This document shows, one piece after another, positions 33,001-62,447 of a stretch of DNA of 64,000 nucleotides. The DNA comes from Candidatus Omnitrophota bacterium (GTDB lineage Bacteria; Omnitrophota; Gorgyraeia; Gorgyraeales; Gorgyraeaceae): contig JBDRJN010000006.1 of the NCBI GenBank assembly GCA_043814965.1, forward strand, positions 7,838-71,837, in the 5' to 3' direction. The notes beneath the pieces were generated by a model. It made no database searches. It worked only from the letters and a program-made list of their open reading frames with translations, and was not told where the DNA came from. Each line of letters starts with the position of its first letter. The first letter of the stretch is position 1. Made by a program: the position numbers and the translations under genes.

Positions 33001-36000
33001 TAGGAGAACCAGCAATAAACTTTTTAATAGACGCTTTACCTGTGTATTTTTATCAAGGTTCTTATAGTGATAATTATTATCCTGCAGAACGATTATTACG
33101 ATTTATATTGCATGGGAATTCTCTGAGATTGTACAAGGCGTTACGCGAACCGCTTTATGAGAATACCCAGAGAGCAATGTCTCTTCGCGTGAAAAGGGAT
33201 CTAATGATAATAGATATACTGAAACAATCAGGAGCTGATGGTTTTTCAGGTTTTAAACTTAATGTTGGTAATTATAATGACCTATTCGATGATAACCCAA
33301 AGATCAGAAATGAAGCATATAAAATCCTTAATAAGGAAGGGTCTGCTAGAGAGTTAGTAAGGATCAGTAGGTTATTTAATAAATTAAGAGACGAAGAGGC
33401 AGCAATAAAGGACCAGGAAATAATAAATAATACAAAGGAAGGAAAACTAAATGCCTGGCGTATACGAGAAGCTATCAATAGGATCGGTAAAAATAACGCA
33501 ATTAGTTATTTAATGACAGGATTCAGTAAAGTTAAGACTATTGAATATGCGAGATCGATCACAGAGTTGGATACTGTTAAAGGAATGAATAGTTTAAGCC
33601 AACTTTTAGACAGTGATAAGTTTAATACTGGTTTTGAAGCCTCGAAGACATTATTAGAAATATCCAAAAAAGATTCTTTAGACCTTACTTCTTTTTTAAG
33701 TAAAGACAGGATGGAGAAGTTAAATACTTATAAACTGGTAAATGGTTATGATTGGTATAAGAAATTAGATAGCCTTGGTCAACCTACGATCTCTAACCTA
33801 AAGAAGATGTTGCAGTTAGATGTAGATACAGAAAACAGAATTAAGATCCTCATTGCTTTAATAAATAGAGGGGACAAGGAATTATTGCCTGACGTATCTG
33901 ATATTATAGAGAACCATGAAAATAGTGATATAAGGTATAGAGCAGCTAATATACTTGGAGATACAAGTAGTTATTGGGCTGAAGATGTTCTTTCGAATAG
34001 TTTAAAAAAAGAGAAAGATGTTAGGGTCAGGAGATCATTAATAGAATCTCTAGGTACGCTGAAATCTAAAAAAGCGTTTAGTTACTTAATAGAGCTAGTC
34101 AAAAAAGAAAATGAAGATATAGATATAAGAAAAGCAGCTATTAAAGCTGTTTCAGATATAGGCTACAAACCCCCTGAATTAGTAGATATCTTAATAAATA
34201 AACTAAGTGATTATTCACTTAAAGAAGATATTTTTGAAGCTATTGGAGCGTTAAAGATTCAAGAGGCAGTCCCGCATTTAATAGATATGATAGAAAAAGA
34301 GATGGATAAGGACAGCCATAATTTTGAATTAATCAATAAAGCGGCAAAGCCATTAGGAGATATAGGGAATAAAGATGCCCTGCCTATATTAATTGACCTA
34401 TTGGATATAGAGAAGAACGGAGTCTTAGAGACAGCAGTTGAGGCAATAGCAAAAATTGGCCCACCGGAAGACATGATAGATGACCTTATAGATCTATTTG
34501 AATTTAGAGAAATGAACGAAGATAAAAAAAGCCCTTACGATCCTTCATCCTATTACAGTACAACATTATGGGGGAATATTAGAAACGCCTTAGTAAAGAT
34601 AGGAAAACCTGCGCTTCCTTCATTGTTAGAGGCTTTTGCAGATGAGGATATACATGAAGAGAGAGGGTATTTTAGTGGGGATAGGGTCAGTGATTATATC
34701 AAACAAGCTGTTTCCGAGATCGAGAATGTTTCTTTAGACACAGATAGGAAGCTGGTTGACTATCTAAAATCAAAATTAAGATCTACTGATTCTGATATAA
34801 GAGATTATGCCTCAGATGTCTTAGAATTGCCTTATTTAGCTAGGATAGTGAGAGAAGATGAATATAATGAGACGCTTGATTCTATGGAGTCAAAGAAGAT
34901 CAGTGATCATGATGGTGCTATTGATGACTTGATCGATATTTTAAAGTTTAAAGAAGGCAGTAATGCGCTTCATGAAAGAGCAGTAAAACTACTTGTTAAA
35001 ATAGGAAAATCCGCAATACCTGAACTATTCGAGCTTCTTACGGATGAAGACGCAGTAGATAGTAGATATGTCAAAGAAGCTTTTTCTAAGATCGAGAACA
35101 TCTCTTTAGAGACTGATGAAGAATTAACCAGCTACTTAGAATCAAAGCTTAGATCCGATAACTCTAAAATCGTAAAAAATGTCTTAAAGGTACTTGATAA
35201 GATCTCACCTGACTCAAAAGTTGCAGCTAAATTCAAAAAAGAACGCACTGATCTATTCCTGAAATGGCTTGGTATCGCAGTTATCGCAGGCGCAGTATTA
35301 ACTGTACTAACTGCTGCATGGAGGGCGTGGCGCCAGGTAATGAAGGAACGCGCTGACAATGATCCTGCAGTAGCCTCTAATACTAAAAAGTCAATATTCA
35401 GCAGGATTTATTCTAAGATCAAGGATAAATTTACATTGTTTACGCTTATAAGTACTTTTTTAGTCATACCTAATCTATCTACAGGCATTTTTGCGCAGAT
35501 GCCGCAAGGGTGGAAACCGATATCTGAATATAATTATGATGAAGAAAGGCGAGTATATAGGAATAGAGCTTACTTAAAGATGCTTAATTATATTTCAGAA
35601 AATGGGATAAAAGAAAAAACCCATGAAGAATTAAGCCGCTTGGTTTATTTAGCAGACTCTTGTGTCTTGGAAAGAGAGAATGAAGAGAATACAAGAAAAT
35701 TAACAAGACATGGAGACCTTGCAGTTGTTGCTTTAGTGGAAGCTGTCAGATATTTACCTCTTCCATGGAGTGAAGATGGAAGGGCGGTATATTGGCAGAA
35801 GCGGTATATAAAAGAGGCTATTAAAAAAATAGGTAGTCGTTCAATACCTGCATTAGTATACGAAGTGAATGATGCTGATACTGCTATATATTTATTTGCG
35901 TTGGGTGTGCTTGGTGAATTAAAAAATGCTGGATCAGCTGTCGAACTTGCAAAATTAATAAATTCAGATAAATTCGAGGATGGAACTATAAAGATGCAGG

Positions 36001-39000
36001 TATGGGACGAACGCATTGGAATGTATATGGATAAGAAAAAGACAAAATTTGAAGTTATTTTAGAAACAATAGTAAAGATAAATAACAAAAATACAGTGCC
36101 GTACTTGTCAAAATTACTTACAGAAACAGTGGAATATGATGATATCTTTGAAGAAACGTATTCTTTTTATTCTATATATTCAGAGGAAAGAGAAAAGGTT
36201 GTATGTGCTATTGGTCAAATAGGAGGGGAGAAAGCTATATCTATTTTGGATAATGTATTAAAAAAGGATAAAGACCCATTAGTACGAATAAAAGCCATAC
36301 AAATGCTGGTAGATATTGGTAAACCTGCTGCTTCAAGCGTAATCAAGGCATTAAAGCATAAAGATAACAAGGTAAAATCTATAGCTATAGAGGCGATTGC
36401 TAAGACAAAAAATATAGAAGCAGTAGATAATTTGATACATATATTAATAGCTGAAGAGGATTGGCATATTAAGGAAATCGCAGGCCAGGCGCTTATTGAT
36501 ATAAGCAAAGAACATTCTTTAGACCTTGTGGAGCATGCTAAGAAAGAAGAAAAAGAATTATTAGATTTATATTTATTTATTATTAAAGGCGAATGGGAGA
36601 ATGTTGTTAAAATTGGCAGGCCAGCAATACCAGTCTTAGCTGAGCTATTAAAGAGCAAAGATACAGGGATATATAAGTCTGATCCTATAACTGTTCTCGG
36701 AGATATAGGCGATCCAAAGGTAACGCCTATCTTGCTTGATTTTATAGGTGAAGACGTGGTAGGGCCTGCAGCTCTTGAAGCTTTTATGAAAATAGGAAAA
36801 TCAGCTATTCCATACCTCATCAATACTTTAGAGAACAGCAAAGATTATTTATTAAAAGGAAAGTCCATTTATATACTTGGGAAATTAGGACATGATAATA
36901 AAGAAGTGATGAATATTTTAATTAACAATCTTAAGGGAGAAAAATATATAAAGCAGACTATAATTGCGCTTGGAGAGGCAAGGCCGCAAGAAGCCCTTTC
37001 TTATTTGATAGATATTGCGGAAGACGAAGATGATGCAAATATTTTAACTTTAACCGCAGAAGCCTTGGGAAAAATAGGAGACAAAAAGGCATTGCCTGCT
37101 TTACTTGAGTTATTGGAAACAGATGATTATAATGTCCTCTCTTATACTATGGATGCTATTGAAAAAATAGGCGTAACTAAAGATGCGATTGATGGATTGA
37201 TAAATGTATTAAAATTTAAAGAAGGAAATTACGGGATTTTTGAACAGGCTGAAAGGCTTCTTATAAAGATAGGGAAACCAGCGCTTCCATATTTGATCCA
37301 GGCAGGAGAAGATAAGGAGATAATAGCACCTAGTTATATTGAAAGAGCTGTAACCAGCATAGAAAATAATCCAGAAGAGATAATTGGCTATCTAGAATCT
37401 CAGCTTAAATCAGATGACAATAAAATGGTAAGAAATACCTTAAAGGCGCTTAAGATAATCTCACCTGACTCTAAAGCCGCGGCTAAATTCAAAAAAGAAC
37501 GCACCAATATATTCCTAAAATGGCTGGGTATAGCAGTTATCGCAGGCGCAATACTTACTGTACTTACTGCTGCATGGAGGGCGTGGCGCCAGGTTATAAA
37601 GGAGAACAAGATCAGCGTATTTATTGGAGGAGCGCTATTAACAGTTTTTTACTATTACTTATCTAATGATATGTCATTACCCATGGTCTCCCAGGCCTTA
37701 TTCTTAGGAGGAATTGTTTTAAAGAAAGATGAGTTCAAAGAATTAGACGCCTTATTAGAGTCAAAAGTGAAAAATAGCATGGTGTCTTTACATAGGAAGA
37801 TAGTCAGTGATTCAAGGAATAAAATACTTGGAGAAGACAAGAGAGAGCTTTATGAATTCAGTCTCAGGGACATAAAGAAATGGGCAGAGTTCTTTAATAA
37901 ATATAAAAGAGACTTAGGAGAGGCGGGAGCATTTATTAAAGGAGCGTATTATATATATTATGACAGGATGGAAAATGATCTTGATAGAGGTAGAGTATCT
38001 GGCCATATAGAAGATACGATATCAGGCTTGTTCCCGGAAGAAGAACTCCAGAAAAAGAGCTTAACGGACCTAGTAGATAATATAGGAAAACAAGATAAAA
38101 ATGTCTCCCAGGTAGAAGATATAAGATTGACATATCTTGAGGAAAAAGACGATACTTACAAGATATTAGACATTGAACTCGATATAAATCATAGAGATGA
38201 AGATAAGACACATGTGCCTGATAGAAAATCTTCAGAGCTTGTGCCTATTTCCCACACCATAGAAGACCTTGAAAAGATAGCCCAGGCAACAGCTCTTAAA
38301 GAGCCGGTTCTGCTTGTAGGAGAGACTGGTGTGGGGAAGACTTCTCTAGTCAGGTATCTTGCATCAGTTACGAATAATAATTTCAGGAGGTTCAATCTCA
38401 ACGGCCAGACTGATAAGACAGAGTTTATAGGAGGTTTTAAACCAAAAAATGAAGAAGGCAATACTGGATTTAAATGGAAAGACGGCATATTGATAGAGGC
38501 GATGAAGAAAGGACATTGGCTGCTTTTGGATGAGATAAATCTTGCTGAGCCTGAGATAGTGGAGCGCATAAGATATTTACTGGATAACAATGGATATCTT
38601 GTCGTAAGCGAACACGACGGAGAAAAATATATAAGCGCGGAAGAATATGACCAAAAGGTAATGGAACTTGTAAAAGGATACGAGGCTCAAGGCATAGAAA
38701 AGGCCAGAGAAGAGTTGATAAAGGACGCTATAGGCGAACTAAAATCAGGGCCTAGTCCTATATTCAGGATCCACCCTAATTTCAGGCTTTTTGCCACAAT
38801 GAACCCTCCCGAATACGAGGGCAGGAAGGATATGTCGCCCGCGCTTATGAACAAATTCAGGGTCAAATGGATAAAAGACCTTACGGAAAACGATATAAGG
38901 ACAATAATCCAGAAAAAATACAGATTCGATAAGGTTATAACTGATTCAATAATGGAGTTCCATAAAGCGCTCAAGAAACTTAACGGAAAAGACGGCTTGC

Positions 39001-42000
39001 TTGGAAGACAAGAAGGCCATACTTACTGCTTTACTATCAGGCATCTATTAAGGCTTGCAAATAGGCTTGATGACAGAAGAGAGAAAAACCTTTTAAATTC
39101 AACAGAAGATATTATAAGGGTATTATCTATAGAAATACAGGAAGTCTATAGAGAAGAAATAAAAGGCGATAGTGATATAAGATTATTTAATAACACGCTT
39201 GGTGCTATTTTTAAGGCAGGGGACTTGGATAAGGATATAGTTGTAGAGCAGAACAAGGAAGGCGGGATATGTGTAATAGGCCAAACAAGATTTCGCATAA
39301 AGAGCGAAAGAGGAAAGCTTGTACCAGGAGATGACGCTATCCTTAAACATGTTCCTACTACTAAAAAGTATCTTTCAAGTATAGCAAGAGCTGTAGACAT
39401 GAAGGAAAAGGTGCTTCTTGTAGGGCCTACAGGTTCGTCAAAGACATCCCTTATAAAGTATCTAGCGCACCTCACAAATAATGAATTTACAAGAGTAAAT
39501 CTTGATTCCCAGACTGACACGTCAGAACTTATAGGAAAACTTGTCCCGAAGAAAGAAGGGAACGGATTTCAGTGGACTGACGGTATCCTTGTAAAGGCCA
39601 TGACAGAAGGCCAATGGATACTTTTGGATGAAATAAACCTTGCTGAGCCTGATATATTGGAAAGAGTGAATTCGCTTTTAGATGACGACGGCTATATAGT
39701 GCTTACAGAAGACAATAACAGGAAAGTAGAATGCCACCCTGATTTCAGGCTTTTTGCTGCTATGAACCCGGAAAGCTATTCGGGAAGAAATAGATTGTCC
39801 AGGGCTATGAGGAATAAATTTTCAGAAAAATGGATCTCAGGGGATATGCCGAAAGAAGAGATAGAAGAAGTAGTAAGATTTTATCTTACGGATAAAGATA
39901 TTGCAAAGACTTTACCTATTGAAGAGGGCATAGCTGTATCAATATCCAAGGAAATAAGAAAAGCATATCTAACTATAAAAGATATGATTGATTCCGGCAG
40001 ATTAGGCAAACAGAAATTAAGCGGAGGAGATATAGGTGATTATGAGTTTAGCATGAGGGACCTGAGAGATTGGGCAGAATTTGTAAGAAGGCTTTCAAGC
40101 GCATCTAACATGAGCCACACAGAAGCCATGATACAAGGCGCATTGTATATCTTTAGAGATAGGTTAGAGGGGTTTGAAGATAAAAAGATATTTGAAGAAG
40201 AAATACTTAATAAGATAGACCAGGGTTCGATCTCTGCTAAAGAAAAGATAAATATAAGTTCCTTGGATGTAACAGAAGAGGAAGGCAGGGGAGAAATAGA
40301 GATATTAAAGCAGAAAATGGAAGAGGGAAGGCTTGATGAAGGAAAAGATCCGCAGGTAGTAGTATTGAAAAAATTTAAAGACCTTACAAAAAATCTTCCG
40401 ATTGAACTTAAAGGAGACCTTTATACAATAGAGAGTAAATTATCAGGTAATGATATGGCTCAGGGTATCCATGGATTTGCGATGTTGCCAGAGGGTATAG
40501 CTAAGGAATTAGTGGAATTTATACTTAATATGCCTGAGCTAACCCGCACTGATAATAAAAATATCGTTTGGAGCATGAAAAAAGCTGCTATAGATGTAAT
40601 AAGTTATCTTGAGAATAGCGGTATAAATATAAAAGACGCAATGTTATATATTCGTTTGAAAGAGGCGCTTAATAGCCCTTCTCAGGAAGTGAGAATAGCT
40701 AGCGCCTTGGCGATAAATTTAGATAATAATAGGACAAAAAAGCTTATAAAAGACCTCAAAATAGAAAGGCCTGATAAATTACCCAAAAAGGATATAAGAG
40801 AAAAGCTAAGCAAGGATTATCTAGGTATAGATGATTTAACTAAAGATGGAAATTCTAATATCCTTCCGTCAATACTATTTGGTATTTTAGCTCAAATTGT
40901 AATAGGAACAGGTAATCTATTAGGTTTAGAAAATACTTTTCTAAAAGTCGTAGCTTTTATAGGATTCTCCCTGGTTCCTTACGGGGTTTTAGCCTTGGTA
41001 AAGCAAACTTTATCTTTTAGCTATAACCTTATTTTCTCAAGGCAATATAAGATATTAAATAATATATATAAAAAGATACCTTTAAAATTAGCCGATTTTT
41101 ATGAATTAGTAAAAGATTTCTCTAAAAAACTTTTAGACACACGAACTTCAAATCTCAAAGCCGGTAAGGATAAAGAAAAAAATAGACTAACATTTTCGTC
41201 AGTAGTGGGAGGCCTTTTGATGGGCGTGACATTTGCTTTACGAGATGACTATATATTGCCATTTATTGCTGATTTTGTAAAGGATGCTTCAGGTTTGTGG
41301 GCTTCAGGAGGTGTATGGGCCCTACTTGGTTTAATGTGGTGGTCATTTTCATGGGTATTATATGCAGTACAGGATAAAGTCTTAACAGCTTTAAGGGAGA
41401 TGATATACCAGCCTTTATCTCGTAAATACGATCCTAAGAAGAAGGCAAATGAAAATTTTGATGCTTCAAAGGATATCTTAAGAGCGTATAGCCCTGAAAC
41501 AGTACAATCCTTCTCTCATCATAAAAAGCGTGATCCAGAAGAAAAGAACAGCTATTCAGAACTCTATACAAAGAAAGATCTAAATACAGTATTGAGGGAA
41601 GACGCTATAAGGCTGTATGAAGAGAACAACACTGTCAGTATAATGGATATAGCCTTGGAGATCAACAAAGACGAAGACATGCCTAAGAACCATGTGCCTG
41701 GCAAAAAGACAGCAGGACTCGTAAAGACAGTGTCTACTGTAAAGAATCTAAAGAAGATCGCGCTATCTATTGTAATGAATGATCCAGTGCTATTAGTAGG
41801 AGAATCCGGAGTTGGTAAGACCTCGCTCGTAAGATACCTTGCGTATCTGACAAACAATAATTACAGGAGATTTAACCTAAACGGCCAGACAGATAAGACA
41901 GAGTTTATAGGAGGGTGGAAGCCCAATAAAGAAGGCGGTTTTAAATGGGTGGATGGTATTTTAGTAAATGCCTTGAGGAGCGGTGACTGGCTGGTCTTGG

Positions 42001-45000
42001 ATGAGATCAATCTTGCAGAGTCGCAGGTAATAGAGAGGATAAATTCACTACTTGATGATGACGGACAACTTAGGATCACTGAAGGTGAAAAAGAAAGAGT
42101 GTTTATTAAGTCAGCTGAATATAGAAAGAGATCGAAGGAGATAGAGAACAAGGAGAGCATTTTAGAAGAAGATGCTATGAAGAAATTGGAAGAAGAGGGG
42201 ATATTTGAGATAAATCCGAATTTCAGGCTATTTGCTACTATGAACCCAACTGAGTATGCTGGAAGAAATATGCTTTCGCCTGCTCTTATGAACAGGTTCC
42301 GCGTGAAATGGATAGATGATCTATATACTAATGAGAAACAGGCGATCTTGAACTTAACATATGGCGATAAATATAATAACCCTGGGCTTAGCCAGAGACA
42401 TATAGAATATCTCACTCTCTTACATGAGGGCTTGCAGGCGCTTAGCGCATCAAGAAAACTCGGAGAAGAAGAAAGAGACCCTTATTACTATAGCCTAAGG
42501 GACTTAAGGAAGGTCTGTGACAGGGCATTGAAGAGGATGAAAAGCGAAAGTAAACCAGGCGAAGAAGTATCCGATAAATTAATAAATAATATTTTATACC
42601 AGGAATTCTTGGAGGTTTATGGCGACAGGACAAGAGATGAGCATGACTATGAAATATTAAAGGATATTGTATTAGGTACGAGGTTTGCTGGTGCGTTAGA
42701 AGATAATAAGTTTGACATAGTAGATAATAAAAAGACAACTTCATTTGGTGGTATAGAGATTGATAGATGGGACAAAGGTGGAAAATACATTCCTAGTAAT
42801 GAGGCAAAGCTTATAGAAAGCAAAACCACCAATAGGTACCTTAAAAAACTTGCTAAGAGCGTTTATATGAATGAAAAGACGCTTTTGGTAGGCCCTACAG
42901 GAAGCGCCAAGACGTCTTTAGTGAGGGGTTTAGCGTATCTTACAGGGAATAATTTTATGAGGATGAATCTTGATGCGCAGACTGATACAGGGGAGATAAT
43001 AGGGCATTTTATCCCAGAGGAAGGTTCTAAAGATAGATTCAAGTGGGTAGACGGAGACCTTGTTACTGCAATGAAAGAAGGCTATTGGGTGCTCTTTGAT
43101 GAGTTAAATCTTGCTGAGCCTGAGATACTAGAGAGGATAAATTCACTTCTCGATGAAGATGGTTCTTTAGTTATCACTGAAAACGAAGGAGAAAAATATA
43201 TACCTAGCGAACAATTCCAAAAACTAAGAGAGGAATATATCAGTAAGGGCCTTATAGATAATAATAACGAAAAGAATGTAATAGTTGTAACTAACGATAA
43301 AGGCGAGACAATAGAGAAGATATACGAAATACACCCTAATTTCCGATTGTTCTGCGCTATGAACCCAGAAAAATATTCTGGCAGGAACAGGCTCTCTATC
43401 GCAATGCGCAATAAATTGACAGAGATATGGGTACCTGGCCTTACTGATAAGGAAGAGATAAAGCATATAGTAAAAGGCTTTTTAGGGATCCCTGAAGGTG
43501 TGTCCAAGGATGTTATCGCAAGCCAGATGGTGTTCCTAAATGGTGAATTAAATAACCTAAAAGAAGAAGATCCCGAAGGTATATTAGAGGAGTATGAATT
43601 TACTATACGCGATCTAAAGGCATGGAGTGGGTATATAAATGAGTTCCAAGGTAAATTGGGCCTGGAAAACGCTTTTATAAAAGGCGCAAGGTATATATAT
43701 TATGACAGGTTCAAAACCGACAGCGAAAGAAAAGATTTTATAGAACTTATAAGAAAAGCTGTATCTAGGGAACCTCAAGAATATATAAATGAAGTCTTTA
43801 ATGCGAAGAGTAGTGAAGACCTCAAGGAACTTACTCCTGACGAAAACAATAAACTGCATGTATTGGGCGTTACTCTTGATATCAATAGAGAAGGAGGAGA
43901 GTATGTACCTGATATAGATAGATCAAAGCTCGTAATAACAGATGAGACTCTAAAAAATCTTGAAAAAGCAGCAGAATCTGTAAAGCTAAATGATAATCTA
44001 TTATTAGAAGGAGAGACGGGCGCAGGAAAGACTTCTTTAATAAGGTATCTTGCATCTATAACTAATAATAACTTTAGCAGGTTCAATCTTAGCGGCCAGA
44101 CAGAAAAGACAGATTTTATAGGAGGTTTCAAGCCTAAGGATGGTACTTTCGAATGGCAGGATGGCATACTCATAAGGGCATTAAAAGAAGGCCATTGGCT
44201 TGTCTTGGATGAGATAAATCTTGCATCATCACAGGTAATAGAGAGGATAAATTCCCTATTAGATGATGATGGTTTTATAGTAGTTACGGAGAATAAAGGC
44301 GAGAAATATATAAAGAGTGAACAATATCAAGCACTTAAGAAGCAATATACGGATGGCGGATTAAGCGAAGGAGAGGCAAAGGAAAGGCTTAATAATGTAG
44401 ACAGGATATTCGAGATAAACCTCAATTTCAGATTATTTGCCACTATGAACCCAGTAACATATGCCGGAAGAAAGAGATTTTCAAAAGCGCTTCTAAATAG
44501 ATTTAGGGTAAAGTGGATAGATGAGCTCCCAAGAGAAGACCTTAAAGAGATATTAGTTGAAAAATATAACCATACTAATATATCCAGTAAGCCTATAGAT
44601 AAGGCGCTGGATTTTTATTACAGCGCCAAGACCGCGGCAGATAAATACCCTCAGCTAAAATTGTGTTTTACAATAAGACATGTCTTAAGATGGTTCGATA
44701 GGATTAACTCTTATACCGGAAAAGATGTCGATAGTATGTTTGCTCTAGAGGCAGGGGAAGTATTTCTGGATGGTTTAGGAGAAGAGATTTCGGAACAAGA
44801 GATAAAAAGAGAGCTTGTAGAAAATATAAGAAATATCTTTGGCAGTCTGTACGAAGACAATGATATAGATATAGACAAACAAAAAGATACTATTAGCTTT
44901 GGAGAGATAAAGATAGCTGAGAAAAAAGGTAAGAGAGAACAATATATAGATAGAGAGCCTTTGTATGAGACAGATTCTACAAAAACGCTTTTAAAAAAGC

Positions 45001-48000
45001 TAGCAAAATGTGTAAATCAGAAAGAGCCGGTTCTTATGAAAGGCCTTACCGGAGGAGGAAAGACCTCTTTACCGAAATATTTATCTGATCTCACAAATAA
45101 TGATTTTGTTACACTGGACTTGGATGGCCAGACTGATACTGCGCAACTTATAGGGCAATATATCCCTGATGAAAATACAAAAACTGGTTACAGGTGGCAG
45201 GATGGGCTTCTTATAAGGGCAATGGAAAATGGCTGGTGGATACTCTTGGATGAGATAAACCTTGCTGAGGCGGATATATTGGAGAGGATAAACTCGCTCT
45301 TAGACGATGATGGGTATATAGTCCTGACTGAAGACAACAATAGGAAGGTAAAATGTCATCCTGATTTCAGGCTTTTTGCTGCCATGAACCCAGAGACCTA
45401 CGCAGGAAGGGCGAATCTTTCAATAGCGATGCTCAATAAATTTCACCAGATATGGGTTCCAAGGGATTTTACAGAAAAAGAAGATATAGAATTAGTCGGT
45501 CATTACTTAGAGACATATACAGCAATAGATAAGATGTCTTCCAGCGTACAGCATATAGAGTATAGAACTATGATAGAGAAAATGCCTTTTGATGTTATGT
45601 ATAGCGTGGCTGATCCATTAGGATTGATATATATAGGTATTAAATCGTTAAAGTCACTGATATCAAGTAAAAGGCATGGGCTTGATCTAAGTGTAAAATA
45701 TTATAATGAAAAAGGAGAAGAGATCACCGAGGACCTAAATAGAAAAGAAAAAAGAAACCTTAAAAAATTCAATCGCAGGCTTAAAGATATAGGTGTAGTA
45801 GCAAGTTATTTTGGAGGGGATTTTGAGGTAGATATACGCCCAGGGAAAAGATGGGCTATAGGATATCCTAAGGATCCGAATGAAAAACCAGTAATAACAT
45901 TCCCTAAGAATGAGCTTCTGGAAAAAGATAAGGATGTTGTGATAGGCAGTGCTTTACATGAAGCAGGACACAGAGACATATCGTGGATGGATAGTTTCTT
46001 TACCGAAAAAGAATCAAGAAGGTTTTTACTTAATGCAGTCGAGGACCCTCGCGTAAATGAATGGACTACTCTAAAGACAGAAGGGACAAGGAAATTTACA
46101 GAAGCTACATACATAGACGCATACCCAAAAGAGGCTAAGAAGAGTTTTGATGAACGAGGTATTATGCCTCACATACAGTTTGGCCTTGGGCTTATACATT
46201 ATTGGTATTATGGCGAAGAACACCCTGCGATAAAAAATACTAAAGTGTTAAAAGCTCTCCAGGATACAAGAGTGGATGCTGTAAAGGCATATAATATACA
46301 CGCAGGCACTATTACTATAACAAGGGATAAAGATATAAAGGATGGATTTATATTATATTCGCCTACATATGGTGAGCAGAAAATAGACTTGAAACTTGGT
46401 GATAGGCGCGCCTTGAGGATGAAAGACGCAGGGATGGTAGAGAGAACAGGCAAAGAAGAAATAACGTTTTATACAGGAGACGGAGAGATCCCAGTCATTT
46501 TTAAAGAAGAAGATTTCAGCAAGAAGAGCCTTTTAAATATGCGCCCGAGCGCAAAGGATAAGGAAATAGCAGCGATTGAATCAGCAAGGATCATAAAAGA
46601 AAAGATATTGCCTGTATATGAGACACTTGTAAAAGAGTCTGTAGATAATAAAAAAGAGGAGTTGAAAAAAGATAGCCTTAGCGAAGATATACAAAGCCAG
46701 GCCGAAAAGGAAGTAGAAGAAGAATCAAAGAAAGCAGCTGATGCATTAGGCCCAAAGATCTCAGAAGATGATCTAGAGGCCTCGGAGGATAAAAAGACAA
46801 AAGCTAAAGAAGACAGACAGCCAACGCCTGAAGCTAAAGAAAAATCACAGCCAATGTCAGTTGACAGCAAGAATGCGGAAGATGAAGACAAGAGAGATGG
46901 CAGTGATATAAAGGAAAGCGCTGAAGACGTAAAAGATGAACCAGGCGAACGTGAAGAATCCGACAGTGATAAGGAAAATAGGGGAGGCCAGGTTGATGCA
47001 GAGAGCTTCTTTAAAGATATGGTAAGAAAGTTTGAAACAGAAGTACCACAAACTACATATGACAATTACTATAGAGGCATAAGCAGGATCATAGAAAAGC
47101 TCTTTGGTATCCTAGATAATGAGCTCCATAAAGATACAAAATTTAGATATAAAGGCTATTTTGCAACAGGACCTAAGCCTGATATGAGAAAAGCAATGAC
47201 AATGAAAGAGACGGGAGATATGGATATATGGCTTAAACGTGTCAAGGCTATACAAAGAAGTTTTAAATTTAGCTTGGTTCTAGATGAAAGCGGATCTATG
47301 GGGCGCGGAGACAAGACAAACCCTGCTGTACAGGCCATGATAATATTTATGGAGGTTCTCTCCAGGTTGAACATAGATTTTTCTATAATAGGCTTTAGCG
47401 ACTCGCCTTCTATTCACATGAACTTTGGTGAAAGCTTCAAGCATAGTAAGAATAAAGTAGTAAAAGAAGTTATCAGATACATGGGTAAAGGCGGGACGAA
47501 TGACGCAAAGGCAGTAGAAAAGGCAACTGCCTTATTAGATAGGGAGATAAGTGATACAAAGATCATGATAGTGGTCAGTGACGGCTATGGAAATAGGGAG
47601 CTATTACGCAAGAATTTATTAAAGGCATATAAAAAAGGCATAGATGTAATAGGTCTAGGCATAGGATCTGGCATGGATTATGTTAAGGAGGTCTATGACT
47701 GCGCAAAGGTCATAGGGGACTTGAATGATCTGCCCAGGATAGTAGCCCAGGTGCTTATAGACATAATCGTAAAAGGAAAACACGTAAGGCGCAGTAATAG
47801 AGACAACGAGGTAGACATCTCTGGGGAAGTAACTAAGATAAATAAAACACAATCTGACGTCCCGGATAGCTTGACGCAATTAAACTCCATACCTATATAT
47901 CAATATATCGGTGCAGGCATAAAAGCGCTGAAGGCAGGCAGGAAACATCTAAAAGATATTAAGAAAGAGAGAGAACTCAAGAAAAAAGAGGAAGAAGAGA

Positions 48001-51000
48001 TCGCAGAACGCATGGAATTATCCAAGCCGACAGAGGAATATAAACCGACAATACATTCAGCCGGAGATCTAGCGATCCATGGAATAGACAATATGTCGTT
48101 AGAGATAGAACAGGGTAAAAACGCATATCTATACGGGACAATAAATCTTAATGTTGCAGCCAAGAATGTTACTGAGGCCTCAAAGGTAGTGCAGGATATA
48201 AAAGCCGGTTTGTTCACAGTTACTAAAAAAGATAAATTAAAATTAAAAGATATATTTGAAAAAATAGAAATAGTCAATGCATGGGATGAATCCGGCAAGG
48301 AGATCTTTGATGCTGGCAAAGAAGAAGAAGGCCAGGTCGGCACACTTTTAGGAGCAAGGTCTTTACGCTATAGGATAAAAGTTCCATGCGAAGAAACAGG
48401 CGAGTTCAAATATGCTTTAGGGTTTACATTCGATCCAAAGCTCAATGGAAAAAGCTGGAGTTATGTAAGAGATAATATTGGCATAAGTTCCTTTGCAGTA
48501 ATAAATGTGATAGATAAGACCCAAGCTTTTGAAAACAAGATCTTAAATGTACTTAGCGGGATATCCTTTAGCAGTTTAGAAGAGTTGATGGATAGGTTTG
48601 ATAACCCAGAGGAGAAAAAGAATATCTATGCCGCACTTAACAACCTATACAGCAAAAAGGCTATCAGTGTCATCTATGATAATATCGACCAGAAAGAGCT
48701 CCGTTATAGTTCGACTTCTTCCCTGGAAGAAGGCTTAAAGAACGGATCAATAATAGAGGCCAAGTCAGGCACAAAGATAAGGTTTTTTACAAAAGACGCG
48801 ATAGAAAAATCCGGCAAAAACTTAGTAAGGTATAAAGAAGGGTTATTTGATGTCCTGGATAAAGCTACGCTGCAATCCAAGCTTGATAAAAATGAGATAA
48901 GGCCTGTTTATACCAAAGAAGGCACCCTGTTTTATGAGAGAGAGTTAGTGCACAGTATGATAAAAGAGGAAAAGATCATACTCAGTAATTTCATTAACTC
49001 CGGACAATTTTTTATATTGGCAAAAGACAAAGATGATTATTTAAGAAAAGAGTTAAATAACTGTAAGAGTATATTTGAAGAGAACTTTAAGGACGCATCA
49101 AAGAACATACATGAGGCCTATGGATCAGCCCGCGAGATCTTTAATACTCCACAAAGGATAAATAGCTTAAAGAGGGCAGTGGAGATGGCTGTAAGCTTAA
49201 AGAAATGGAACGCTGATGACTATACTATCGCAGCTGCATTTTTGGAGAACATAGACCTTGAGAATAAAGATCATATAAAAAGGATAAAACAATTTGACAA
49301 AAGGTCAAAGGTCTTGAATATCCTTAAGAATTTCAGGAATGTATCCAACCTTCCGCATATACTAGAGCTGAATCTGGAGAACCATCTTGATATCCAGTAT
49401 AAGATGGACATGATCATAAAGACCTCGAGGACCCCGGAGGTAATGCTGCTTACATGGGCTGATATATTGAACAGGGTGAAGTCCGAGGAAAGAAAAGAAA
49501 ACTTTAAATATATTGCTCAAGCAGCAAGGACGCTTTACGGCCCCTTAGCAGATAGATTAGGCAGGGAAGATGTTGCCAAGGAGATCTGGCATACTATCTT
49601 TGAAAAGCAAGACCCGGAATTATGCAAGAAGGTGACAGAGGCAATGGAAAAAAGAATAGGCATGACCCTTAGCGAAGGAGAAGTGTTTTTGCATGAAGCA
49701 AAACTCAAGATAGAGAAGTATTTAAGAGACAATGATCTTAAGGCAAAGGTATACATAAGGGTCAAGTCACCTGTCTCTATGTTCGACAGGGCAAGAAAAG
49801 GACAGACAAAATATTCTACAGAAGAGGTCTTGCGCATTATCGAGACATCAAAAATGCTCAGGGATACATTAGGTATCATGGTGGTATTTGATGAGGAAGA
49901 ATACAAGATACACCAATCAGTATATTATATCGCAGCTGAGATAGCCAACATAGAAGAGGCATCGAAGTTCAGGAGAGAGGCGCTTTATGTCGACTATCCA
50001 AGGTATAGTTTCTACATAAAAGCAGAGAATGGCGCAGATATGAGCTTTATGGCTAAAGACAAAGATACCTATAAGACATATAGAGTAGGAGAATCTGCGC
50101 ACTGGCATTTTAAATTAAAAGACAGGATACTGGAAGGAAAGAAGCAGAGTTTTGAGTATTGGCCGGATGGCCTGGAATATGCAGGAGATTTTGAAAAAGA
50201 TTTTAATGCTCTAGTAATCGAACTGGATAAATATAGTTATGTGTATTATGCAGAACCTTCAAAGCAGTACACCTATCCCAAGATCATAAAACTTCCCTCA
50301 GGTTCTATTGCTGTAGACCTTGCGAGTGAAATGGGTGTATTGAACAGTGATTTTTCAGGAGTCACAGTAAAGAACCTTAAACATGACTATAATTATGGCA
50401 AAGAAATGGGAGGAACTATAAGATCAAGCCATCAACCATATGGCATTGACTATCTATTAAAGGATGGAGATATAGTCACTCCGTATAGCAGCAGAGAAGG
50501 ATTTCCTGAAAATAAAAGACTAGCCTTGACAGAAGCAATGAATAGATCGAAAAATCAGGCTGCCAGGGATTTTATAAAAGGGAAATTAAATATGTCCAAT
50601 CTAAGGATAGCTCAATGGGGAAAAGAGAGCTATCCTATACTGAATAAGATATGGCGTAGTATACTTATGGTGACAGGAGTTACACCTATACATGAACTTG
50701 GCCATATTTACGGAGCTCTTTTACAAGATGATGATAAAGTCATAAATAGCACTAAGACAATAGAAGAGTTTGAGATAAATACCAAAGGAGTATTCTTTGA
50801 AGGGAGGCTTAAGGGCCTGAAAGGGTCTTCTTTACTGTTAGGGGCTGCAGCAAATCTGATAGCTGTACCATTGGTAATATTTTCAAGTTTAGGAGCTGGA
50901 TTTGATAGTGTGTTGACGTATGTAGCGGGACTTCATATTATAGCTGGCCTTGTAGAAGTATTTTCCAGTAAGGGTGATGTAAGAAAGTTTTTTGGAGAAA

Positions 51001-54000
51001 GGCCGCTAAAAAGCATCATAGAGGATATACGTAACGGCTTGAGATCCATAAAAGACGATATATTTAAAGATAAATATAATATAAATAATGATCCTATAGA
51101 GCTTACTACACGAAAGAACTTTGAGGAGATCACCGAGAGATTCGAAGGCATAATAAAACACGGCAAGGTCTCTTCATCTGAGAAATTGCGGGATAAGATA
51201 ATACTTCTTACTATCAAGACGCCTCCTTTAAGGAATATGGCAGTATGGACGCTTAATAATATAAGTTCACGTCCAGCGCTGAGAGAAAGGCTTTCATTTA
51301 TACTTCCCATGCTGAAGTGGCTTCAGTCAAAATTTATAATCCCTGTATCAAGTAACCTTGAAGAGGCGACATATGAAGCAGAAAAAGTGATCCTTGATAA
51401 TAGGAAGAATGGCATTGGCCTTACACTTGACAGCGTCGGAGATGCTGTGCATTCAGAGGAAGAAGCAAAGCTGCATGTCGATCATTATCTCAGCATGATA
51501 AGGAATCTCGGGCCTAAAGCAAAGGACTGGGAGAAAAATGAATCTCTCGACAATGTAGAAAGGCTTCATTTTTCAGTAAAGCTTAGCGCTATTGTATATG
51601 ACGCGTGGAAAAAGAAAGGAAGAGGGTTCGCTAATAAATCAAAGATAAAAGAGACACTTAAGACACTTATAAGAGAAGCTAGCATTTACAATGCCTTTAT
51701 CCGCATTGACCTTGAAGAATACGGATACCGCGATACTACCATGGATATCTATAAGGAAGTCATTGAAGATCTTGCCAAGGAGGATGAGAATACCGTGGTA
51801 AGTGATGACAGGGGCACATTGAGGGTAGGGGTCGTAGTGCAGGCATATCTAAAAGATTCAGGAAAAGTCTTAAATGACTTATTGAACTGGGGAGAGACGT
51901 ATCATTATCGCGTGCCAATAAGGCTAGTAAAAGGCGCGTATGACGACAAGGAAAAGAAATGGGCAAGAGGCGAGTATAAAGAGGGCGAAGATGTATTTAA
52001 TGGAGGCAGGCCCTACCCAAGCCCTGTATTCAGGGAAAAGGAATCCACAGACGCTCATTATGAACTATTGAGTGAATATCTTATCATGAATAATGATAGG
52101 TTCCAGACAGCTATTGCATCGCACAATATCCGCTCTATATCACACGCAATGAGCCTTGCTGAAAATTATGAAGTTGATAAAAAGGATATTGAAATACAGA
52201 TGCTTTATGGCATGGGAGACCCTGTGAAATATGCTATCAGAGATCTAGGTTATCGTATTCGCGCGTATGCTCCTATAGGCTCATTTATAGAAGGTATGAA
52301 ATACTCGGGCCGACGCCTTAAAGAGCTTGCGAATAAGAGCAATGCGCTTACTAAGACCATGGCATGTGATTATAGATTCTTGAGAAGATTGAAAAAGGCC
52401 CCTAAATTCCAGTATGGCGACAGCCCTATTTATGTAGCAGAGGAATTTGTGGGAACACTTGAAGGGAGAAAAGAGGAGCTGCGCCTTAATAAAGCAAGAA
52501 GATGGTATGAGATATTCCCGTATAGTTTTATTATTGAGCATCCGTCTATCTTAGTATCGTGGCTCAATCATATACCTAACGCGGTCTTATATGGTTTTAT
52601 AAAACAGTTATTCCAGCCTTTTAATTATAAGTCCAGGGAGTTGGTGGATGAGTTGAGGCACAGCCTAAGACAAGAAAGGACATACAGCGCATTTATACTG
52701 TTGGATAAGATAAAAAAGATCACAAATAGAAGGTCACTTAAGTACTTATTGAATATTCTGTTCGATAAAACCATAAACAGCGAAAAGTATGAAGAAGTAA
52801 TATTAGAGATCAGAGACCATATCCAGCATATAAGGCATAAGCTTTATGCGTATAATGTAAAAAAAGATGCAAAGAACATGAAATACGATGAATACGACGA
52901 TATAAAGAAAGATTATCCATTTTTCTTTGATGATAATCAAGGCACATACCAGCATTTACGAAAGATAGCAAGCTATAAAGTGAGAAAATATAGAAGCATG
53001 AAAGGCAGTATAAATATATGGATCCCCGGGGGAGTGTCATTCTTTGAAGACGGGCCCAAGATACCATCTGCGTATATGGCAGCTATAATATTCCTGGAAG
53101 AAGCAAGGAAACAGGGATTAAAAGGCGAAGAGTTGGAGGAATTTAAAAAGGACCTTAATATTACTGTTACAGATGGCAATAAAGACGCGCTTTTACATGG
53201 CGAGATAGGGTCTTTTAATATCAATGCATTTATAAAAGAAAGCAGGCCTCTTACAAAAGAGGATAAAGAGATAGTCGAGAGATATTTTGATATCACAAAA
53301 GCTAGCGGGAGGTTAAAGGTAAAGCAAGATATAAGAGATATAATAAAATGCAAGAATGAACTATCTGTAAATTATATAAGGCCAGGGTTTTTTGATATTA
53401 TCATAGATCAGTTCGTTGAAACCAAGATAGAGATGCGCAATGAAGGGGACCGCTGGCCGATCCTAAATAACATACGTGTCGGAAACTTCATAGAAAGCCT
53501 TAAAATAGACGGAGATATCATCACTACGGGGGACAAGGGTTTTGAAGATAGTTCTTTTTTAAGAGGATATTCCAGTAAACTTCCTGTAAGCAGTTATTTC
53601 GGGGGAGAGAAATTGGAAGGATTTGCAAGGGTATACCAGAAGACATCACCTGCGTTTTACGATAACTGGCGGGACTTTGCTGCTGAGATCAATATGTTTA
53701 AAATTATTAAAAAGGATGGGATTAAATTAATGGATATCAGCCGGAAGATATTGGATACAGCATATGACTTGGCAGAGTTTGTTCATGGAGGACAGATAAG
53801 GACCAATAATAAAGAACCATATATGGAACATCTTGTAAGGACCACTATGATGCTCAGGGATGTATTCAATGTATTGGATAGATTCAAGGTCTCAGAACAT
53901 ACAAAAGTAGACCTATCAGGGTTATCCAATGATGAGATAAGACAGATAGATGACCTGTCAAGCGAGATAATATCTTCGATCGCGCTATTACATGATTCAG

Positions 54001-56044: not shown

Positions 56045-57370
56045 ATGGGGTGTCGGTGTAGCAGATCTATGCTTTTTTTTATGACGAGTTTGTTCACTGT
56101 TTTTTTAAGTATTTTCTTGATCAGCTGTTCTCCTACAGCAAAACCTCAGGATTCAAATACAATAACTATATGGCACTGGATGAGCGATAGAGAGGGAGCT
56201 TTTAAAGAACTTGCAAGGATATATGAAGAAGAAAAAGGAATAAAAGTAAATTTTGAGCTTTATGCCCCGTCAGAGGTTTATACACAGAAGATAAGGGCCG
56301 CGGCGCAGACTAATACCCTCCCAGATATATTCGGCATACTTGGTAAAAAAAGAGATCTTGCTAGTTTTATAAAAGCAGGGCATATATATAATCTTACAGA
56401 AGATATGAAAGCCAATAATAGCGAATGGGAGAACAGGCTTTTTAATAAGGCTCTCTCTGTGAATGAATTTAAATCAGAAAATAGTTTTGACATAGAGCCT
56501 GGCATATATGGAATACCTCTGGATGTAACTAATCTCCAGATGCTATATAATAAGGACCTGTTAAGGCGGGTAGGATGGCCTGAAGACAGCCCTCCTGAGA
56601 CATGGGAGGAGTTTATAGAAGCCTCAAGGCTTCTTAATGAAAATAATATCCAGGGGTTTATAAGCGGCTGGGGAGAGATATGGATGATAGATTGCTTTGC
56701 TAGTAACTATGCATTCAATATAATGGGTGAGAAAAAAGTCCTTGATACCATAAAAGGCAAGGTGCCTTATACAGATCCTGATTGGATAAAGGTCTTTGGC
56801 CTATTTCGCCAGATGAGAGACGAAAAGATGCTGGCAAAGGGTGTTGTTACAATGGTCAATAAGACAGCAGAACAGCTTTTTGCAAATTCAAAGGCATGTT
56901 TTGCATTTAACGGATCTTGGTGTGTAAATGTCTATAGCGGCATGAACCCGGACCTAAATTACGGAGCAATGCTTCCTCCTAAAGTTCTTGACAAAAACCC
57001 GATGGTTATATGGGGAGGCGCTGGATCGAGCTTTATGGTCAATAACAGGGTCAGTGGCCCAAGGAAGGCGGTTGATTTTCTAAGATGGCTTACAGATACT
57101 CCGCAGCAAAGCTACCTTGCCGCAGCCACAAGAAACCTTCCTTCCAACAAAGAAAGCTTGAAAGATATCCCAGATATACTATTTCAATTCGCGGATGATA
57201 TGGATAATACTACGCACCCAAACGTATGGGGCGTTTCTGAGTTCCCGGAAGTTATAGAGACGTTCAACAAGGGCATACAGTCGATCATTATAGGCGAAAA
57301 GACGCCAGAAGGATTAGCTGGCGAGGTACAGGCAGTTAAGATGCGGGAGATGGAGAAGGCAGGACAATAA
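56045..57370 (+). CDS. ABC transporter substrate-binding lipoprotein, carbohydrate (family 1, MalE-like)
   Basis: N-terminal signal with lipobox 'FLISC'. Size and composition typical of sugar SBPs. Immediately followed by two MalF/MalG-type permeases. GGAGG at 56036-56040 (a short spacer, so ATG 56069 is an alternative start). Confidence 0.75.
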   Translation: MGCRCSRSMLFFMTSLFTVFLSIFLISCSPTAKPQDSNTITIWHWMSDREGAFKELARIYEEEKGIKVNFELYAPSEVYTQKIRAAAQTNTLPDIFGILGKKRDLASFIKAGHIYNLTEDMKANNSEWENRLFNKALSVNEFKSENSFDIEPGIYGIPLDVTNLQMLYNKDLLRRVGWPEDSPPETWEEFIEASRLLNENNIQGFISGWGEIWMIDCFASNYAFNIMGEKKVLDTIKGKVPYTDPDWIKVFGLFRQMRDEKMLAKGVVTMVNKTAEQLFANSKACFAFNGSWCVNVYSGMNPDLNYGAMLPPKVLDKNPMVIWGGAGSSFMVNNRVSGPRKAVDFLRWLTDTPQQSYLAAATRNLPSNKESLKDIPDILFQFADDMDNTTHPNVWGVSEFPEVIETFNKGIQSIIIGEKTPEGLAGEVQAVKMREMEKAGQ

Positions 57371-57396
57371 CGGGTTACGGGTTACGGGGTACGGGT
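57371..57396 (+). repeat. G-tract repeat 'CGGGTTACGGGTTACGGGGTACGGGT' (G3N4G3N4G4N3G3: canonical G-quadruplex-forming pattern) filling the whole SBP-permease intergenic gap
   Basis: Read directly; 69% GC in an otherwise AT-rich context, abutting the ATG at 57397. Confidence 0.8.
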
Positions 57397-58287
57397 ATGA
57401 AGGTCCAAAAAAATATACTTGAAAATTACTTATTTATATTGCCAGCAGTACTGATATTTTCTCTATTTTATATATATCCTTTCTACAAGGTTTTTACGCT
57501 TTCTTTGTGTCAATGGGATGGCATAGCTGGTTTTAGTTTTGTAAAAAGCTTTGTAGGTTTAAGGAACTTTAAGGAACTTTTGTTTCAAGATAGAGTATGG
57601 TGGCAGGCTATGGGGCATGCAGGATATATCACACTTATTGCCCTGACATTTCAAAATGCATTAGCCTTGAGCCTGGCTTGGGCGTGCGACAGGGATATAA
57701 AAGGAGGCAATATATATAGGGTAATATTCTATCTTCCGCCTGTGTTATCAGAGATAGTAGTGGGGCTTGTGTGGCGCTGGATATATGACGGAAATTACGG
57801 CCTCCTGAATCACTGGCTTACTAATATGGGATTGCATCATTTGGTAAGAGATTGGCTTTCGGACCCAAAGACAGCTTTAACAGCAGTCGCTGCTATCCAT
57901 TGCTGGAAGGGTTTTGGATGGGGATTTATTATATTTTTAGCAGGCTTACAGACTATACCTAGGCAGCTCTATGAAGCAGGAAGAGTAGATGGGGCGAATT
58001 CATGGCAGATGTTCAAGAGCATCACTTTACCTTTGATGGTCCCTGTATTTATATTGGTATCTGTACTTACGATATTAGGCACTATGCAGGTATTTGTATT
58101 GATACTTTCTATGACAAATGGCGGCCCGGGTTATCATACAGAGGTCCCCGTCACAAGGATCCTGACCACAATGGTAGGTTCTTCAAGGTTTGGTTATGCG
58201 TGCAGCCAGGGGATAGTATTTGGAGTTATATTATTAGCGATTTCATTTATACAGATAAAGCTCTCTAAACATACGTATAAAACATGA
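57397..58287 (+). CDS. ABC transporter permease (MalF/UgpA-type, binding-protein-dependent transport system inner-membrane component)
   Basis: Six hydrophobic helices; EAA loop 'EAGRVDGANSWQMFKSITLPL'. Confidence 0.85.
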   Translation: MKVQKNILENYLFILPAVLIFSLFYIYPFYKVFTLSLCQWDGIAGFSFVKSFVGLRNFKELLFQDRVWWQAMGHAGYITLIALTFQNALALSLAWACDRDIKGGNIYRVIFYLPPVLSEIVVGLVWRWIYDGNYGLLNHWLTNMGLHHLVRDWLSDPKTALTAVAAIHCWKGFGWGFIIFLAGLQTIPRQLYEAGRVDGANSWQMFKSITLPLMVPVFILVSVLTILGTMQVFVLILSMTNGGPGYHTEVPVTRILTTMVGSSRFGYACSQGIVFGVILLAISFIQIKLSKHTYKT

Positions 58288-58365
58288 ATAGTCATGATAT
58301 CAAAAATCAAAGATTAAAATGCAAAATTATAGATTAAAATTCAAAAATAAAAAAGAGAGAAATTA

Positions 58366-59214: not shown

Positions 59215-59216
59215 CG

Positions 59217-62377: not shown

Positions 62378-62384
62378 TTTAAAA

Positions 62385-62425: not shown

Positions 62426-62447
62426 ACAACTTTATGGAAAGTGAGAT

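Follow-up and report, generated by a model that had tools for sequence, protein, structure and literature searches.

A probable membrane anchor at a protomer seam of a midasin-like six-module AAA_5 ring in an Omnitrophota giant protein

Concatenated AAA+ rings, such as those of dynein and midasin, have been studied as soluble eukaryotic machines, and the locus described here raises the question of what a strongly hydrophobic segment is doing within such a ring in a bacterium. The locus lies in a window of 64,000 nucleotides (nt) from a Candidatus Omnitrophota bacterium (GenBank assembly GCA_043814965.1, contig JBDRJN010000006.1, positions 7,838 to 71,837 of the forward strand). A single open reading frame (ORF; frame of nt 6) nearly fills the window; it has no start within it, stops at nt 55586, and encodes at least 18,527 amino acids (aa; residue i begins at nt 6+3(i-1)). 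The encoded protein carries six AAA modules in tandem, and an insert of about 423 aa separates the second (AAA2) from the third (AAA3). We propose, from comparisons of its sequence with that of relatives, that this insert probably anchors a bacterial midasin-like ring to the membrane from a permissive seam between protomers.

Pfam searches (cut-offs of E 0.01 for aa 12400-18526, where the best 25 of 50 families were considered, and E 1e-5 for the rest of the protein) identified six AAA_5 modules with midasin-type lids, followed by VWA, proline dehydrogenase, and GNAT domains. AAA_5 was matched over six stretches (whole-segment E 7e-160), accompanied by AAA_lid_7 and MDN1_4th. The P-loops lie at aa 12772, 13140, 13932, 14300, 14669, and 15013 (nt 38319, 39423, 41799, 42903, 44010, and 45042), giving spacings of 368, 792, 368, 369, and 344 aa, and the Walker A GK[TS] and Walker B DE motifs are intact in all six modules (nt 38319-45065). 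The modules alternate between a GETGxGKT and a GPTGxxKT type. Among solved structures, Rea1/Mdn1 is the best match of the AAA region (E 1.7e-156), with CbbQ, NorQ, and CobS at ~1e-13 to 1e-10. About 360 aa beyond the end of the last AAA unit (aa 15192), an aspartate/glutamate (D/E)-rich stretch begins (~aa 15550), in which the D/E fraction reaches its protein-wide maximum of 0.40 at aa 15608; it is followed by the VWA domain (aa 15757-15890, E 1.5e-12). Together, the D/E-rich stretch and the VWA domain form the presumed ligand-binding tail of the ring. As Rea1/Mdn1 is the best structural match and the modules are followed by a D/E-rich stretch and a MIDAS tail, we describe the assembly as a bacterial midasin-like ring. 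A one-to-one pairing of its modules with those of Rea1 was attempted and rejected: both module types best match Rea1 AAA3 and AAA5, and the register against Rea1 therefore cannot be assigned. Between AAA6 and the D/E-rich stretch lies an HExxH-type motif, HEAGH (aa 15318-15322, nt 45957-45971), which could be a metallopeptidase-like site.

By alignment, the ring is three fused copies of one di-AAA_5 unit. A query spanning AAA4 and AAA5 retrieved many bacterial proteins of ~719-843 aa with two AAA_5 modules each. Four of these (P0019, P0027, P0033, and P0013) align over their full length and in register with aa 12733-13415, 13894-14583, and 14633-15192 of the giant protein, at 32-39% identity and 308-444 bits; unit 1 aligns to such free-standing proteins at 36% identity and 385-395 bits, and unit 2 to residues 114-713 of P0019 at 39% identity and 444 bits. 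Only ~50 aa lie between units 2 and 3. The three free-standing proteins whose ends were checked (P0019, P0027, and P0033) begin with a disordered leader, continue with the linker that in the window picks up again beyond the insert, and end right after the second lid, which is the point at which the insert starts. Since the free proteins stop where the insert begins and carry the resuming linker at their N-terminus, the insert lies at the joint of ancestral protomers 1 and 2.

The VWA/MIDAS partner is part of the same chain in the window; in the split relative described below, and likewise beside free di-AAA genes, it has a gene of its own. The motif DESGS occurs in all. At the two loci examined, those of P0019 and P0027, the di-AAA protein is devoid of any hydrophobic run and the downstream VWA gene carries DESGS, as in the window. 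Loci L009 (8001-12993) and L011 (8001-12857) each encode a free-standing di-AAA_5 protein followed by a VWA protein with DESGS, neither with hydrophobic runs, in a conserved SecG-L31-thymidine kinase-RF1 neighbourhood; one belongs to an Eremiobacterota metagenome-assembled genome (MAG) and the other to a MAG labelled Bacillota. Two observations concern the ends of the ring: a lid-like remnant (aa 12584-12690, nt 37755-38075; MDN1_4th, homologous to the AAA2 and AAA4 lid tails) stands ahead of AAA1 with no large domain before it, and unit 3 matches the free di-AAA proteins only as far as ~residue 645 of 719. The two together may reflect a circular permutation at the ring-closure point.

The borders of the insert follow from paralogy within the protein. 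By blastp, the segment ahead of AAA1 aligns to the AAA4 lid tail plus the pre-AAA5 linker; it also aligns, split in two, to aa 13346-13420 and aa 13844-13919. The insert therefore comprises aa 13421-13843, after the AAA2 small domain and before the linker into the AAA3 large domain; a MAFFT alignment against AAA4-to-AAA5 was also used to delimit it. The initial annotation of this stretch, made from the DNA letters alone, had given an AAA2-to-AAA3 P-loop spacing of 2376 nt, which is exact (the other spacings are 1032-1107 nt), but its estimate of ~620 extra aa falls to ~424 (792 - 368), and its interval of nt 39830-41700 was too broad, taking in the AAA2 lid and part of the pre-AAA3 linker. It had further equated the position with that of the midasin AAA2 insert, and this equation does not hold. 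The Rea1 insert is a helical bundle that extends the H2 beta-sheet of the AAA2 large domain (AAA2L) (Sosnowski et al., PMC6286127). In the HMMER alignment to Rea1 chain 6i27_A, chain residues 647 to ~757 face query residues 82-89, where the alignment breaks; the Rea1 insert thus maps within the large domain, between aa 13180 and 13190 and ~240 aa upstream of the window insert, which starts at aa 13421 past the AAA2 small domain.

A relative in which the ring is encoded by separate genes divides the insert in two. This organism (64.5% guanine plus cytosine) is represented by two independent assemblies, L007 and L008, which are 99.98% identical and carry five ordinary genes beside a DDE transposase, with no giant ORF (L007 2882-13342; L008 3532-13853). 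The gene order is AAA1 and AAA2 with the HEAT-like domain, four probable transmembrane helices with AAA3, AAA4, AAA5 and AAA6, and VWA; several of these genes overlap by 4 nt. Gene 1 (1099 aa) comprises AAA1, AAA2, the lid, an acidic connector, and a HEAT-like domain, stops just past RPGRLPYW, and matches the insert family with an hhalign probability of 99.9% (E 1.8e-35). Seventy nucleotides with two in-frame stops, present in both assemblies, separate it from gene 2 (662 aa), which starts M-TRV-GDYLG, continues with four hydrophobic runs, the juxtamembrane motif, and AAA3, and matches the insert family with a probability of 97.5% (E 5.7e-12). The split point corresponds to window aa 13603/13604. 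The gene break thus divides the insert into two modules: one is a HEAT tail belonging to unit 1, the other a four-helix anchor at the N-terminus of unit 2 (the AAA3 chain). No true membrane-like run occurs in the other L007 ring genes, so that the four-helix anchor is the only membrane segment of the split ring. In place of the single membrane hairpin inside the ring that had been supposed, the seam of the ancestral di-AAA protomers thus holds a HEAT-like domain and four helices. The further suggestion that the segment anchors the ring at the membrane is strengthened by a relative that carries these same four helices as the N-terminus of a separate AAA3 protein, while their actual insertion into a membrane is something we infer.

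The first module is a HEAT-like helical repeat domain. AlphaFold2, run on a six-sequence alignment, models it as all-helical with a predicted local distance difference test (pLDDT) score of ~80. HEAT_2 matches four of the six family members (best E 7.7e-10), the window copy being without a match, and a Foldseek search of the PDB placed HEAT/ARM repeat proteins at the top, none significantly (E >=0.36; the models are of low confidence over the helices). The family-conserved order at the start of the insert runs from an acidic LDILEEEGKG connector through GVRGFALLPEEIA, a HEAT signature (D..VR.tAALvLE.LG), and RPxKLP to DYLG.

The second module contains the four strongly hydrophobic runs that had first been noted, and which indeed exist at nt 40860-41372. 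They score as membrane helices on four measures, namely the Kyte-Doolittle scale, a Hessa-type scale, the Wimley-White octanol scale, and Eisenberg hydrophobicity with a low helical moment. All four are charge-free, with Kyte-Doolittle means over 19 residues (KD19) of 1.5-2.0, Wimley-White octanol sums of -3.3 to -14.8, Eisenberg mean hydrophobicities of 0.50-0.71, and helical moments of 0.13-0.28, and all rank in the top ~1% of the protein's windows. The extra sequence between AAA2 and AAA3 thus has the transmembrane-like properties originally ascribed to it. A control set of 119 soluble midasin-like homologues, totalling 104,568 aa, yielded 49 segments at KD19 >= 1.5, or ~1 per 2,100 aa, nearly all isolated and charge-containing; four runs within 175 aa is far above this rate.

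Charges in the connecting loops of seven sequences are distributed unevenly: lysine plus arginine (K+R) residues number 0 in 58 residues of the helix 1-2 loops (1-18 aa long) and 9 in 162 residues (0.06 per residue) of the helix 3-4 loops, as against 75 in 444 residues (0.17 per residue) of the helix 2-3 loops. This alternating bias fits an N-in/C-in topology, as the ATP-dependent modules on both flanks require, and with an even number of spans both flanks stay on the ATP side of the membrane. Across the family, the outer loops measure 1-30 aa.

Conservation of the insert was assessed with an exhaustive HMMER search of 1.84 billion representatives, which recovered five true relatives over the whole insert at 27-31% identity. 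One further family member (L003/L006) came from genome and metagenome scans, which otherwise returned duplicates of proteins already identified, and a partial Omnitrophota protein of 50% identity begins inside helices 3-4. Word-indexed protein searches with the insert and with the family alignment gave zero matches; that index may lack giant proteins, since its one successful search gave no match longer than 1,278 aa. The named sources are Omnitrophota MAGs and one MAG labelled Planctomycetia. In all relatives with enough flanking sequence, AAA1 and AAA2 are followed by a gap of 780-865 aa with four runs and then by AAA3, and the longer ones reach AAA6. The four hydrophobic peaks fall at the same alignment columns in all seven distinct relatives despite only 20-27% identity there; the runs span ~19-29 aa across the family, and helices 1 and 2 vary in sequence and length, with indels falling inside them. 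Following DYLG, the conserved order continues with helices 1-2, the juxtamembrane motif, helix 3 with its invariant Gly, a Trp (kept in six of seven sequences), helix 4, EMIYkPL, and a variable charged linker. The juxtamembrane consensus is VIYxPQYK....RYKtIPL...DFYxL, with invariant Q, Y, Y, P, L, D, and L columns (alignments A1 and A3).

From these features we infer how the insert might work. The HEAT-like domain would extend the AAA2 lid, and the four-helix bundle would pass in and out of the membrane from the cytoplasmic side, with very short outer loops and its conserved motifs on the cytoplasmic face. An even number of spans and a seam located where an ancestral chain ended would allow the ring to be pinned to the inner membrane in this way and still close in the cytoplasm in cis. 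Midasin can pull with its MIDAS tail only once it has been fixed to the pre-60S particle (PMC6286127); by analogy, the anchor would be a stator, the fixed point for force generation by the ATP-driven ring, and the D/E-rich tail and MIDAS domain would pull a ligand against that point.

Several points weigh against this proposal. Helix 3 is the weakest run and is marginal in the window copy (KD 1.49; relatives 1.5-2.7). AlphaFold2 gives the helix region a pLDDT of 31-60, with long helices and no confident packing (predicted template modelling score, pTM, 0.39-0.49 over both models; the helix module modelled alone, pLDDT 53 and pTM 0.39), and from such low-confidence helices packing and lipid exposure cannot be judged. 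Transmembrane predictions on Omnitrophota giant proteins often disagree between tools (West-Roberts et al. 2023, bioRxiv 10.1101/2023.11.21.568195). The family is small, at 7-8 distinct sequences, all predicted from metagenomes; the closure of one ring in cis by units 1-3 is a step of interpretation. Finally, a further hydrophobic hairpin lies upstream of AAA1, ~220-270 aa ahead of its P-loop in the window and 430-515 aa ahead of AAA1 in relatives, and its orientation is ambiguous because both of its sides are K/R-rich.

Of the other explanations, the one that survives best, though we consider it unlikely, is that the spans are real but play no part in ring mechanics, belonging to a periodic series of many hairpins that would hold a very long nascent chain at the membrane during its synthesis, with the seam merely tolerating an insertion. 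Besides the four of the insert, hydropathy scans find ~25 membrane-like runs in the giant protein, with upstream clusters every ~700-1200 aa, and HEAT arrays followed by hydrophobic hairpins are a recurring pattern upstream of the ring; published surveys likewise report numerous transmembrane helices in Omnitrophota giant proteins. However, the module occupies the same seam in the non-giant relative L007, where the ring genes encode no other membrane segment, conservation within the insert is highest in the cytoplasmic juxtamembrane motifs, and the ~3,150 aa downstream of the insert are free of such runs. An origin of the insert as a copy of the upstream HEAT-hairpin units was considered and could not be demonstrated, as hhalign gave a weak HEAT match (probability 13.6%) and zero match for the helices.

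Somewhat less probable still is a regulatory gate, in which the HEAT domain and helix bundle would sense a membrane cue and control the ATPase via the AAA2/AAA3 interface, in place of midasin's autoinhibitory AAA2 insert. In Rea1 the large domain of every module packs against the small domain of the one before it, and the AAA2/AAA3 interface is among the open, regulated sites (PMC6286127); the insert's conserved motifs would also lie on the cytoplasmic side. Set against this, the insert has no sensor domain and barely any outer loop, and it lies away from the H2 position.

A third alternative, which we regard as improbable, holds that unit 1 and units 2-3 are not parts of one ring in cis, the module being a true boundary whose flanking parts join the copies of other chains or are separated by cleavage once the chain has been made. 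In its favour, the ancestral unit is a free di-AAA protein, which could make a ring only by trimerising, the L007 relative encodes the units as separate genes, and giant proteins have been proposed to undergo proteolytic processing (West-Roberts et al. 2023, bioRxiv 10.1101/2023.11.21.568195). Every complete relative nevertheless has exactly three units and six modules, the stoichiometry of a ring per chain or operon, and so short a joint between units 2 and 3 also argues for one assembly. We consider it very improbable that the four runs are helices buried inside a soluble helical domain: AlphaFold2 offers no confident membrane-like bundle and helix 3 of the window is only moderately hydrophobic, but the runs are uniformly hydrophobic and charge-free over 19-29 aa with a low amphipathic moment, keep their hydrophobicity while sequence and length drift, are separated by loops of alternating K/R bias, stand at the N-terminus of L007 gene 2, and are of a kind rare in soluble homologues.

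Table 1. Positions of the ring, the insert, and associated features in the window
Feature	Position (nt)	Strand	Residues (aa)	Basis
Upstream hydrophobic hairpin	37512..37670	+	12503-12555	Hydropathy scans; HEAT_2 matches just before
Di-AAA unit 1: AAA1 (P-loop nt 38319-38342) and AAA2 (P-loop nt 39423-39446), each with lid	38202..40250	+		AAA_5, AAA_lid_7
AAA2 H2 beta-hairpin VPKKEGNGFQW, 11 residues, without insertion	39543..39575	+		Equivalent to the Rea1/midasin AAA2 H2-alpha insert site; HMMER alignment to 6i27_A
Whole insert (~423 aa), between AAA2 lid tail and pre-AAA3 linker	40266..41534	+	13421-13843	Internal paralogy (blastp), MAFFT
HEAT-like helical repeat domain	40350..40805	+	13449-13600	AlphaFold2, HEAT_2 in relatives
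Conserved motif GIHGFAMLPEGIA in HEAT-like domain	40464-40502	+		
HEAT signature QEVRIASALAINL	40683-40721	+		
RPDKLP	40767-40784	+		
DYLG motif; start point of second protein in split relative (M-TRV-GDYLG)	40815..40826	+		Alignments, L007 gene 2 N-terminus
Probable transmembrane helix 1	40860..40928	+	13619-13641	KD19 1.92, Wimley-White -5.9, low helical moment
Probable transmembrane helix 2	40941..41003	+	13646-13666	Hydropathy; peak kept in relatives
Conserved juxtamembrane motif YNLIFSRQYKILNNIYKKIPLKLADFYEL, K/R-rich helix 2-3 loop	41022..41108	+		Alignments, hhalign
Probable transmembrane helix 3; invariant Gly, GxxxG-like context	41187..41243	+	13728-13746	Hydropathy, alignments
Probable transmembrane helix 4	41307..41372	+	13768-13789	Wimley-White -14.8, alignment
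EMIYQPL motif after helix 4	41397-41417	+		
Pre-AAA3 linker	41535..41762	+	13844-13919	blastp homology to pre-AAA1 and pre-AAA5 linkers and to N-terminal linker of free-standing di-AAA proteins
Di-AAA unit 2: AAA3 (P-loop nt 41799-41822) and AAA4 (P-loop nt 42903)	41685..43754	+		Alignment to P0019
Di-AAA unit 3: AAA5 (P-loop nt 44010) and AAA6 (P-loop nt 45042)	43902..45581	+		Alignment to free di-AAA_5 proteins
D/E-rich stretch (aa 15550-15670), then VWA with MIDAS motif DESGS (nt 47283-47297, aa 15760)	46653..47675	+		Pfam, composition

Turning to the remainder of the giant protein, the first 10,000 aa (nt 6-30005) contain many membrane-like runs and returned zero Pfam families at the E 1e-5 cut-off, and aa 10001-12400 are matched by HEAT repeat arrays. 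Within nt 33432-37604 (aa 11143-12533) lies a tandem duplication of a ~640-aa unit composed of HEAT repeats and a hydrophobic hairpin; the two copies (aa 11143-11781 and aa 11922-12533) share 29% identity (E 5e-52), and their first helix is almost the same, LFLKWLGIAVIAGAVLTVL in one and IFLKWLGIAVIAGAILTVL in the other. The C-terminal end (nt 49206-55583) includes a fused proline dehydrogenase domain (aa 17126-17446, E 5.5e-64), with further hydrophobic runs ahead of it at aa 16940-16986, and a GNAT acetyltransferase domain (aa 18232-18319). Directly downstream, nt 56045-63662 encode a sugar ABC importer (binding protein and two permeases), a TPR plus GH2-like protein, and a second glycoside hydrolase-like protein. 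The region around the insert holds no second-strand gene of note and no Rfam match.

Judged by its sequence, the ring architecture appears to be a variation on known kinds; what sets it apart is that a six-module chain contains one conserved four-helix anchor, located precisely at the seam of ancestral protomers, and that a relative is still split there. The three arrangements form a readable series, from a soluble di-AAA and VWA pair, through a split operon with a membrane anchor, to a fully fused ring in a giant protein, which bears on the origin of concatenated rings and on where insertions are tolerated. The system also offers a first functional handle on the cytoplasmic part of the Omnitrophota giant proteins, a part that is mostly unannotated, and the split operon is a tractable target for study because it consists of ~10 kb of ordinary-sized genes. 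More tentatively, and as a possibility we hold to be doubtful, the system might be a prokaryotic membrane-anchored midasin, in which three di-AAA units form a six-module AAA_5 ring with a four-helix stator at one seam and pull ligands via a D/E-rich tether and MIDAS domain, occurring both as an operon and fused into Omnitrophota giant proteins. Were this true, it would provide a bacterial record of the step from a MoxR-type oligomer to a concatenated ring of the midasin/dynein type.

The known Omnitrophota giant proteins have numerous transmembrane helices and include AAA_5 among their domains (West-Roberts et al. 2023, bioRxiv 10.1101/2023.11.21.568195; 2026 preprint 10.64898/2026.06.07.730766). 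The window protein resembles them in its ORF of >10,000 aa, its many membrane-like segments, its AAA_5 modules, and its relatives among Omnitrophota MAGs; an adjoining sugar importer has been reported for these genes, and the carbohydrate importer of the window matches this. A divergent SecA_DEAD domain, reported for most of these proteins, is not among the Pfam families returned for the part within the window (best 25 of 50 for aa 12400-18526), the N-terminus of the protein lying outside it. The terms midasin, dynein, and MoxR are absent from the main texts of both reports, with AAA in the domain legend only, and on this term search neither a six-module ring nor a membrane module within one is described there. 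In a review of AAA+ structural insertions, the word 'transmembrane' is absent.

Free-standing di-AAA_5/VWA proteins of the MoxR-VWA type (P0019, P0027, P0033, and P0013) are homologous to each window unit over their full length, but are separate soluble proteins with neither a HEAT nor a membrane module and would have to trimerise for a ring. The MoxR-family AAA_5 hexamers (CbbQ-CbbO, NorQ-NorD, CobS-CobT, and RavA-ViaA) share the AAA_5 fold with an H2 insert and a MIDAS-containing VWA partner, whereas they are homo-hexamers of single-module protomers, show far weaker similarity (E ~1e-13 to 1e-10), and have no internal membrane segment.

FtsH, Yme1, Bcs1, and Msp1 hold a cytoplasmic ring at the membrane through transmembrane helices directly before the AAA module. 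They are members of the classical AAA clade, carry an anchor on every protomer and thus six per ring, and are usually coupled to a protease or translocase function. L007 gene 2 has exactly the FtsH-type layout, with N-terminal helices followed by an AAA module; the window protein, in contrast, has one four-helix anchor per six-module ring, internal to the chain.

Midasin (Rea1/Mdn1) is a eukaryotic AAA+ protein that strips pre-60S particles of assembly factors. Like midasin, the window protein unites six tandem AAA_5 modules and midasin-type lids in a single chain, and it has an H2 beta-hairpin in all modules and a D/E-rich stretch followed by a MIDAS domain with DxSxS. It differs in that its AAA2 is without the H2-alpha bundle that serves midasin as ring plug and Rix1 binder, the linker from AAA6 to the D/E-rich stretch measures ~360 aa as opposed to a helical linker of ~1700 aa, all six Walker A and B motifs are intact, and the ring is recognisably a di-AAA unit repeated three times. 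Its membrane module, moreover, stands between the small domain of AAA2 (AAA2S) and the large domain of AAA3 (AAA3L), and the protein is bacterial, the ring being embedded in a chain at least 18,527 aa long. The step to six-tandem AAA proteins was placed early in eukaryotic evolution by a 2012 analysis from the Aravind group (PMC3495828). Both Rea1, whose AAA2 insert binds Rix1 (PMC6286127), and the window ring would need an element that fixes the ring before it can pull, and in the window that element would be the four-helix anchor.

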